Below, piece by piece: positions 16,707-17,316 of a stretch of DNA of 40,873 nt (its first letter is position 1; the number at the start of each line of letters is the position of its first letter). The stretch lies in IMG/VR virus record IMGVR_UViG_2609460344_000022; one strand, 5' to 3'. The stretch is from a virus (lineage: Duplodnaviria > Heunggongvirae > Uroviricota > Caudoviricetes). The translations under genes and the position numbers were made by a program. Below the pieces are notes generated by a model, which did no database searches, was not told where the DNA came from, and saw only the letters and a list, made by a program, of their open reading frames with translations.

Positions 16707-16951
16707 ATTCATTACGATATGGGAATTCCCATATCGGGTAAAAACGGTTTGCGGTAAAGCGAGAGTTAAGTAGAATTGCTGCGGGTGCTTGAGGCTGTCT
16801 GCCTCGGGCATGCCACCGTAAGGCAGACAGAGAAAAACCCCAGTTAACATTACGCGTCCTGCAAGACGCCTAACATTAATCTGAGGCCAATTTCATGCTA
16901 GACACATGTAGGTTAGCCTCTTACGCGCCGAAAGGCAAGGAGAAGCAGGCT

Positions 16952-17107
16952 ATGAAGCAGCAAAAGGCGATGTTAGTCGCCCTGATCGTCATCTGTATTA
17001 CCGTCGTAGTGACGGCACTGGTAACGAGGAAAGACCTCTGCGAGGTACGAATCCGAACCGGTCAGACGGAGGTTGCTGTCTTCACAGCTTACGAACCTGA
17101 GGAGTAA
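16952..17107 (+). CDS. hok: Hok/Gef-family type I toxin
   Basis: 51 aa, MKQQKAMLVALIVICITVVVTALVTRKDLCEVRIRTGQTEVAVFTAYEPEE closely resembles recalled Hok (…[25 protein letters not shown]…); AAGGAG SD; 5' and 3' UTR segments are mutually complementary. Confidence 0.85.
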   Translation: MKQQKAMLVALIVICITVVVTALVTRKDLCEVRIRTGQTEVAVFTAYEPEE

Positions 17108-17175
17108 GAGACCAGGCGAGGGAGAAATCCCTCGCCACCTCTGATGTGTCAGGCATCCTCAACGCACCCGCACTT

Positions 17176-17197
17176 AACCCGCTTCGGCGGGTTTTTT
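17176..17197 (+). terminator. Intrinsic terminator of hok mRNA
   Basis: AACCCGCTTCGGCGGGTT hairpin + TTTTT; an identical hairpin recurs at 18016-18036. Confidence 0.6.
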
Positions 17198-17316
17198 CAC
17201 TTACTGTGGTTGTGAATACGATTGGTATTAGGCTATGCTAACAACATTAGCCTGACTAATTTTGTATTGACTTGATTTTTGTTAAAGAACAGGACGGAGA
17301 AGTAAGGGTACACCCA

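Follow-up and report, generated by a model that had tools for sequence, protein, structure and literature searches.

The hok/mok/sok-type locus described here occupies positions 16783 to 17197 of a 40,873-nucleotide (nt) stretch of Caudoviricetes DNA (IMG/VR virus record IMGVR_UViG_2609460344_000022; the whole stretch is called the window below), and its closest described relatives are hok/sok (parB) of plasmid R1, hokW-sokW of Sakai prophage 5 (Sp5) in Escherichia coli O157:H7 and of Sp5-type Stx phages, hokC/mokC/sokC (gef) of E. coli K-12, and hokD (relF) of the K-12 cryptic prophage Qin. In the summary of the R1 model given by Le Rhun et al. 2022 (PMC9841398), the translational activator element (tac) requires several mutually exclusive partners, and what matters about mok is that it is translated, not its product. 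Takada et al. 2021 (PMC8621323) found that HokW is toxic and located in the inner membrane and that sokW, reported as 71 nt complementary, neutralizes it, partly via RNase III and Hfq. Both RNAs were detected in that study; upon RecA-dependent (mitomycin C) induction, sokW disappears and HokW appears, and deletion of hokW-sokW from Sp5 halves phage release and leaves growth unaffected. HokW, a close relative of the window peptide, is 44% identical to R1 Hok (PMC8621323). A 2026 preprint has catalogued 44,248 Hok homologues, which are enriched in prophages, and confirmed the toxicity of the K-12 HokD coding sequence. Set beside these systems, the window locus is very probably an intact type I toxin-antitoxin module of the hok/mok/sok family, situated in the nin region of a lambdoid prophage of E. 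coli. Modules of this kind are known, and the hokD coding sequence of this one is already annotated publicly; the unannotated parts are the RNA parts (mok, Sok, and the folding elements).

All of the R1-type RNA parts appear to be present, "complete" being a statement at the level of sequence. An earlier note, made by inspection of the DNA, had called the locus complete-looking; that description stands for the parts, and the coordinates needed small corrections. The elements are arranged as follows.

16749-16776, plus strand: hok/mok promoter, placed by homology, with a weak −35 (TTGCGG, 16749-16754), a 16-nt spacer, and the −10 TAGAAT (16771-16776).
16783-17197, plus strand: putative full-length hok (mok-hok) mRNA of ∼415 nt, with the 5′ end placed by homology and the 3′ end at the intrinsic terminator.
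16783-16794, plus strand: tac, GGGUGCUUGAGG (also written GGGTGCTTGAGG), paired with fbi in the minimum free energy (MFE) structure.
16795-16830, plus strand: stable 5′ hairpin CTGTCTGCCT...AGGCAGACAG, with 10-nt arms that are 100% complementary.
16801-16811, plus strand: tac partner in the nascent-transcript (metastable) hairpin, from the fold of the first 53 nt.
16827-16903, minus strand: predicted Sok antisense RNA of about 71-77 nt, consisting of a 5′ single-stranded tail, a long hairpin, and GGGGUUUUU.
16883-16886, plus strand: mok Shine-Dalgarno (SD) sequence GAGG, preceding the mok ATG by 8 nt, without variation in 56 loci and corresponding to the GAGG mok SD of R1.
16895-17107, plus strand: mok reading frame of 70 codons, in frame with hok, its ATG 57 nt before that of hok.
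16910-16938, minus strand: putative Sok promoter, placed by homology, with the −35 TTGCCT (16938-16933), a 17-nt spacer, and the −10 TAACCT (16915-16910).
16915-16929, plus strand: ucb, or anti-SD, AGCCUCUUACGCGCC, assigned after the R1 model.
16937-16942, plus strand: hok SD AAGGAG, 9 nt before the hok ATG, kept in all loci.
16952-17107, plus strand: hok toxin open reading frame (ORF) of 51 amino acids, matching Pfam PF01848 (HOK_GEF).
17115-17136, plus strand: 3′ hairpin GGCGAGGGA-GAAA-UCCCUCGCC, present in the MFE structure and the likely 3′ end protector of the processed mRNA.
17157-17169, plus strand: fold-back inhibitory element (fbi), CCUCAAcGCACCC (also written CCTCAAcGCACCC), paired with tac in the MFE structure.
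17176-17197, plus strand: intrinsic terminator found by terminator scan, with an AACCCGC-TTCG-GCGGGTT stem-loop (17176-17193) and an overlapping T-run (17192-17197).

This order is collinear with R1-type hok, hokC, and hokW and with loci from Photorhabdus, Pantoea, and Kluyvera. The DNA identity to hokW-sokW is ∼91% from the promoter to fbi, and the two loci share a 16-nt extra Sok hairpin, the Sok −35/−10 hexamers, a 70-amino-acid in-frame mok, tac/fbi, and a lambdoid prophage as carrier. They differ in the C terminus of Hok (TAYEPEE in the window versus VDYESEK in HokW), in the Sok tail/target loop (CTAGAC versus CTGAAC), in the terminator after fbi, which is replaced in hokW, and in their neighbors, the window locus lying in a nin region beside Doc and hokW beside an EaA-like gene. 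R1 hok/sok presents the same succession of tac, metastable partner, Sok terminator, mok SD/AUG, ucb/Sok promoter, hok SD, hok, 3′ hairpin, and fbi, and its folding logic (PMC9841398) fits the covariation found at window-type loci. It is carried by a plasmid and not a prophage, however, and has clearly diverged in both peptide and DNA; its tac reads GGCGC where the window has GGGUGC, with a matching change in fbi. Sok of the window is ∼12 nt longer than R1 Sok because of an inserted GCGTCC..GACGC stem, a 16- to 20-nt insertion (GCGUCC..GACGC in the RNA) relative to both sokC and R1 that is common to sokW.

The two K-12 relatives each lack part of this arrangement. In hokC/mokC/sokC, mok and hok share a frame and their ATGs are separated by 57 nt, tac is identical, the ends of sokC align with those of the proposed Sok, and the peptide is 88% identical to that of the window, but the 3′ region is disrupted by IS186 and the Sok hairpin is without the 16- to 20-nt insertion. 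K-12 hokD shares 48/51 residues of the peptide and has the same hok SD, 3′ hairpin, fbi, and terminator, yet it is homologous to the window only from ∼16 nt before the hok ATG to the terminator. Homology in this truncated copy starts at the hok SD; relBE stands in place of tac, the 5′ hairpins, the mok start, ucb, the Sok promoter, and Sok. Since K-12 hokD is without these upstream parts, the gene known from K-12 as a remnant is present in the window in its intact form. The MG1655 copy (1645119-1645872) retains fbi and the terminator though the partner tac is gone; with tac missing, it is a hok without a leader, whose 3′ regulatory element is orphaned and whose transcription, if any, would come from relBE.

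The toxin itself is readily assigned. The 51-amino-acid peptide (MKQQKAMLVALIVICITVVVTALVTRKDLCEVRIRTGQTEVAVFTAYEPEE) matched the HOK_GEF profile over all 42 profile positions with 83.9 bits (cut-off, 22; E = 5.6e-24), in agreement with its earlier identification by eye as a Hok/Gef-family peptide. PGAP labels exactly 16952-17107 "type I toxin-antitoxin system toxin HokD" (WP_197687434.1) in a RefSeq record of identical sequence, and neither mok nor sok is annotated by PGAP in that record. The three differences from K-12 HokD (I9V, L16I, and I19V) are conservative swaps (I/V, L/I) within the membrane helix. A preprint reports that hokC, hokD, and hokE mRNAs undergo A-to-I editing by TadA, the tyrosine being recoded to cysteine and enabling a disulfide needed for full toxicity; the TACG motif at 17090-17093, comprising hok codon 47 (TAC, Tyr47) and the G that follows, is intact in the window locus.

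The extension of the hok frame upstream, which the earlier note had suggested as a mok-like coupling frame, proved to be a 70-codon ORF starting at ATG 16895 that matches K-12 mokC and the "MokW" annotations of phage records in position and length. K-12 mokC and hokC also have a common stop codon. In the window, hokW, hokC, the R1-type plasmid copy, Photorhabdus, and Pantoea, the mok ATG stands 57 nt upstream of hok and in the same frame. A Kluyvera locus (Kluyvera sp. 142486, 434-841) has it 58 nt upstream in the +1 frame, opening a 69-codon ORF. Thus, the mok ATG is kept 57-58 nt upstream of hok in 7/7 loci examined (five genera), the frame varies, and the ORF measures 68-71 codons. An open mok frame is retained whichever frame is used, which fits the published view that the act of mok translation is what counts.

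Pairing between the two ends of the mRNA is the hallmark of the family that the earlier note had proposed from complementary 5′ and 3′ segments. The core of that proposal held: in the MFE structure of the whole transcript (16783-17199; −175 kcal/mol, z = −7.4 versus shuffles), 16783-16794 pairs with 17157-17169 in a helix of 12 bp with one bulged C. The longer segments originally given did not hold as such, for they also include locally pairing bases (16795-16830) and 16780-16782. The tac/fbi duplex energy was −21.5 kcal/mol, compared to −15.6 ± 2.2 kcal/mol for shuffled 3′ untranslated regions (UTRs), and 27/2000 shuffles were as good; taken alone, the complementarity is only modestly unusual versus chance. 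Because tac/fbi alone exceeded chance so mildly, homologues were collected, and it is the covariation across them that convinces. Genome contigs supplied 43 loci (Escherichia, Shigella, Kluyvera, Photorhabdus, Pantoea, Citrobacter, Pseudocitrobacter, and others) and viral contigs another 80, and the covariation alignment comprised 56 sequences from six genera, including one R1-type plasmid hok and one Stx2-phage hokW.

Across these 56 loci, tac/fbi was 93.3% paired, with four pairs changed on both sides, which supports the pairing proposed in the earlier note. Of the two-sided changes, U-A to C-G occurred in 11 loci and A-U to G-C in 2, and G-C to A-U occurred at one pair in 5 loci and at another in 1. 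When one strand was slid by 1-3 columns as a control, pairing for the structure as a whole was 44-54%. The 10-12 "unpaired" tac/fbi cells are largely an artifact, because MAFFT displaces the distal half of fbi by a single column in the Photorhabdus group, where the bulged C is missing; per-sequence duplexes are fully paired in that group. Two candidate pairings were rejected. An extension of the helix by TGC/GCA (16780-16782 with 17170-17172) is absent from hokC, Photorhabdus, Pantoea, and R1 and would put the 5′ end just 4 nt after the −10. A second long-range helix in the MFE structure, between the mok AUG region (16895-16907) and 17144-17156, was rejected as a family feature; most homologues cannot form it because the 5′ arm is hypervariable and the 3′ arm far less so (mean entropy of 0.16 over 17144-17175).

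Candidates for the mutually exclusive partners that the R1 model demands of tac could also be placed. In the fold of the first 53 nt, 16785-16795 pairs with 16801-16811, and this metastable helix was 97.4% paired in the 56 loci, with three pairs changed on both sides, including tac position 4. The alternative tac/ucb pairing was 89.8% paired. The competing stem, in which ucb GCCUC pairs with the mok SD GAGGC, is a 5-bp helix invariant in the 56 loci, so it carries no covariation information. Position 4 of tac (U/C) covaries with both fbi and the metastable partner, and it pairs with ucb in 55/56 loci as U-G, U-A, or C-G, the change lying on the tac side; this coupling to several partners would be the covariation expected of one element with alternative partners. 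Forcing tac/ucb cost +19 kcal/mol in the full-length RNA versus about +5 kcal/mol (4.7-6.7 above the ensemble) without fbi. Two local hairpins were conserved in the same alignment: the stable 5′ hairpin was 94.6% paired with three compensatory pairs, and the 3′ hairpin was 96-97% paired with two. The latter occupies the place of the stem that protects the processed R1 mRNA, and by analogy with R1 it likely serves as a protector in the window locus.

The limits of the mRNA were drawn from homology and from the terminator scan. The 5′ end was taken from position 1 of the Rfam model RF01794 ("sok"/CssrC), together with alignment to R1-type hok, and the hok/mok −10 sits 6 nt before this homologous 5′ end. 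The promoter sequence recurs in the expressed hokW locus, and a TAnAAT-like hexamer occurs at the same position in six genera. The Rfam search that had been recommended as a check scored 110.3 bits against a gathering threshold of 59 and covered the model in full, positions 1-157 (window 16783-16957, plus strand). Since RF01794 spans the sense strand between the 5′ end of the hok mRNA and the hok AUG, the match signifies leader homology and not an antisense gene. The intrinsic terminator that the earlier note had reported after the UTR pairing was found at 17176-17197, and the same terminator follows K-12 hokD.

A Sok RNA had been expected on the opposite strand over the leader, and its sequence features could be placed there. 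The Sok promoter aligns with the R1-type TTGCGC/TATCCT and with those of sokC and sokW, its −10 TAACCT being the same hexamer as in sokW. At that identical −10, the "pro-less" construct of the hokW-sokW study (primer YO-421), in which the plus-strand AGGTTAG was changed to CGGCTCG, lost antitoxin activity (PMC8621323). The annotated 5′ G of K-12 sokC aligns with G16903, 7 nt after the −10, and the sokC 3′ end aligns with 16827; these homologies, together with the predicted fold, delimit the putative Sok on the minus strand. The fold of an RNA from ∼16902 to 16830 (−30.4 kcal/mol, z = −6.3) consists of a tail and a long hairpin, after which comes GGGGUUUUU with its U-run; this RNA is complementary to the mok SD and AUG. 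The hairpin was 93.8% paired across the homologous loci, with six compensatory pairs. Its non-Watson-Crick cells comprised 13 A·C on the plus strand (equivalent to G·U in Sok) versus 1 G·U on the plus strand, an asymmetry that hints, as a small and non-independent pointer, at selection on a minus-strand RNA.

The cassette varies most at 16893-16908. In a comparison of 29 loci, each at least 88% identical overall, the entropy was 0.98 bits over 16898-16908 versus a cassette mean of 0.20. Within 16893-16908 fall the opening codons of mok, a predicted target loop (CUAG, a YUNR-like motif), and the 5′ tail of Sok; co-resident hok/sok copies in one genome differ there. Such variability of the Sok tail/target loop is as expected of a specificity determinant, and the segment may set Sok/hok specificity.

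The placement of the locus in a prophage, which the earlier note had assumed, agrees with the surrounding genes: an integrase, an S24 repressor, Cro/CII, DnaC-like loader/replication genes, NinB/NinE, RusA, Q, and lysis and terminase genes. Within this order, hok is located in the nin region and is co-oriented with the early rightward operon (pR). The chromosome of E. coli strain cM8a matches positions 8000-32000 of the window with 100% identity, and a prophage of the O104:H4 outbreak lineage matches the 561 nt around hok with 99.8% identity. The hok stretch was matched in 4721/5426 complete E. coli genomes, at a median of 2 and up to 10 places, and in 101 phage records, where it is labeled gef, MokW, HokD, or "host killer." In most homologues, similarity to the window does not extend left of ∼16750 or right of ∼17199, and with homology ending at both edges, the unit behaves like a cassette. 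A perfect 22-bp palindrome, CGATATGGGAATTCCCATATCG (16715-16736), lies immediately beyond the left edge, at the point where other loci cease to be similar; it could serve as a site for protein binding, form a terminator-less hairpin, or mark a recombination boundary.

Three toxin-antitoxin modules of two types stand back to back in this nin region, hok/sok being the first. Directly after hok comes a Doc (death-on-curing, Fic fold) toxin (17506-18000, plus strand; TIGR01550, 1.4e-35), preceded by a small ORF of 74 amino acids from TTG 17272 (60 amino acids according to PGAP) that is without a Pfam or NCBIfam match and is presumably an unclassified antitoxin. The third pair, on the minus strand, consists of a helix-turn-helix protein (18051-18368) and a RelE/ParE-family toxin (18476-18793); the PGAP coding sequence is shorter. 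Beyond them are two tandem modules of isrK, C4 antisense RNA, and c4-a1b1 target (18821-19019 and 20406-20604, plus strand), each just upstream of an ORF6N/P22AR antirepressor gene (19073-19738 and 20657-21340) and with ninB/ninE between them, an arrangement resembling a duplication of a P1/P7-type immunity (ant control) cassette. Between the Q antiterminator and SASA esterase genes, in the late-promoter region, is a full-length match to the small RNA STnc100 (165 bits; 23746-23951, plus strand).

The elements and pairings described above come from sequence and covariation, and the dynamics that would connect them are taken from plasmid R1. A weak constitutive promoter would yield a stable mRNA of ∼415 nt, whose 5′ end (tac) would fold onto the next 11 nt during synthesis. 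In the finished RNA, tac would pair with fbi near the 3′ end and ucb would hold the mok ribosome-binding site, so that neither ribosomes nor Sok could engage. Slow 3′ trimming back to the GGCGAGGGA hairpin would remove fbi; tac would then take ucb, freeing the mok SD and AUG, and translation of mok, which is in the same frame as hok, would be needed to start hok. The product would be a 51-amino-acid inner-membrane peptide that collapses the membrane potential. From a stronger antisense promoter, a short-lived Sok of ∼72 nt would be made, the 5′ tail of which would bind the loop at the mok start; the Sok/mRNA duplex would block mok translation and be cleaved by RNase III, and Hok would appear only once Sok synthesis stops.

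A number of results weigh against an intact and working module of this kind. The NCBIfam Hok models scored below their curated cut-offs (NF007279, 48.3 versus 73 bits; NF007290 [HokA], 39.2 versus 89 bits), but these models are narrow and do not cover the HokD/HokC branch, so they have no bearing on membership at the Pfam level. A simple sigma-70 consensus scan of 16600-17350 on both strands detected no promoter; the hok/mok promoter was missed because its −35 is poor, and both it and the Sok promoter, which score under the scan threshold, are putative placements by homology. No tac/ucb pair was changed on both sides in the 56 loci. When 3′-truncated mRNAs ending at 17137-17150 were folded, the MFE structure was without the tac/ucb open form, and the predicted accessibility of the mok start barely changed after truncation, from 0.39 to 0.41. 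The energy model does not prefer the open form, so the processing-triggered switch continues to be an inference from R1. The transcript ends, toxicity, and processing of the window copy are likewise predictions, and by the summary given in a preprint, the chromosomal hokA, hokB, and hokC loci did not mediate post-segregational killing; chromosomal loci of this sort indicate that an intact sequence is no guarantee of activity.

As to what would release the toxin, the most likely trigger for a prophage copy co-oriented with pR is prophage induction, by analogy with hokW-sokW; the alternatives are prophage loss and transcription shut-off by an infecting phage. From the co-orientation of hok with pR, we infer that the convergent Sok promoter could suffer interference from read-through at induction; the hokW authors had left this point open. 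A possible but on balance doubtful elaboration combines this with the variable segment: 16893-16908 would be a fast-evolving address label against cross-neutralization of co-resident copies, and pR read-through would silence the Sok promoter at induction, tying the release of Hok to the lytic program. The variability of the segment and the pR orientation are observed; selection for non-cross-reacting copies and the mechanism of interference are extrapolated from them.

Activation coupled to induction is ranked as the most likely role of the locus, with prophage addiction and abortive infection next and a silent remnant least. Under addiction, loss of the prophage would remove the unstable Sok and leave the stable hok mRNA, and the cell would die as with R1. 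The RNA architecture is the same as that of the R1 plasmid-stabilizing system and the locus is one of three adjacent toxin-antitoxin modules, but deletion of hokW-sokW from Sp5 was without effect on growth and had its phenotype on induction, not maintenance (PMC8621323), the chromosomal loci summarized above did not show post-segregational killing, and spontaneous precise loss of an integrated prophage is rare; we regard addiction as unlikely, if credible. Abortive infection would have a superinfecting lytic phage stop host transcription, upon which Sok would decay and Hok would kill the cell before the invader matures. R1 hok/sok on a high-copy-number plasmid is reported, in summary form, to have lowered T4 plating and plaque size, and the neighboring Doc and RelE/ParE modules make the stretch resemble a defense or toxin-antitoxin island. 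By that same summary, however, the T4 effect was modest and high copy number was needed, and a survey in a preprint saw no enrichment of hok beside known defense systems, which leaves this role rather improbable. That the locus is a silent remnant like K-12 hokD, hokA, hokC, and hokE, whole in sequence but impaired in promoter strength, processing, or peptide, would accord with the negative promoter scan, the decay of hokD in the K-12 lineage, the three substitutions relative to K-12 HokD, and the absence of killing summarized for previously tested chromosomal loci, yet it is very improbable given that every regulatory element is present with its pairing upheld by compensatory change, that the substitutions are conservative and lie in the membrane helix, that the locus shares its promoter regions with hokW, for which mRNA and Sok were both detected and the toxin is active, and that it is 99.6-100% conserved in many genomes.

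With a ∼91%-identical homologue already characterized, the locus leaves knowledge of the hok/sok family unchanged, and its value is mainly one of annotation. Public genomes label only the 51-amino-acid coding sequence, as "hokD," a name taken from the antitoxin-less K-12 remnant; coordinates are now available for the mok frame, the Sok RNA, and the regulatory mRNA ends, and the window shows the shape of a complete hokD-type locus. As the first in a run of three toxin-antitoxin modules, co-oriented with early rightward transcription, it offers a convenient natural case for how induction switches off Sok, the question that the hokW-sokW study left open.

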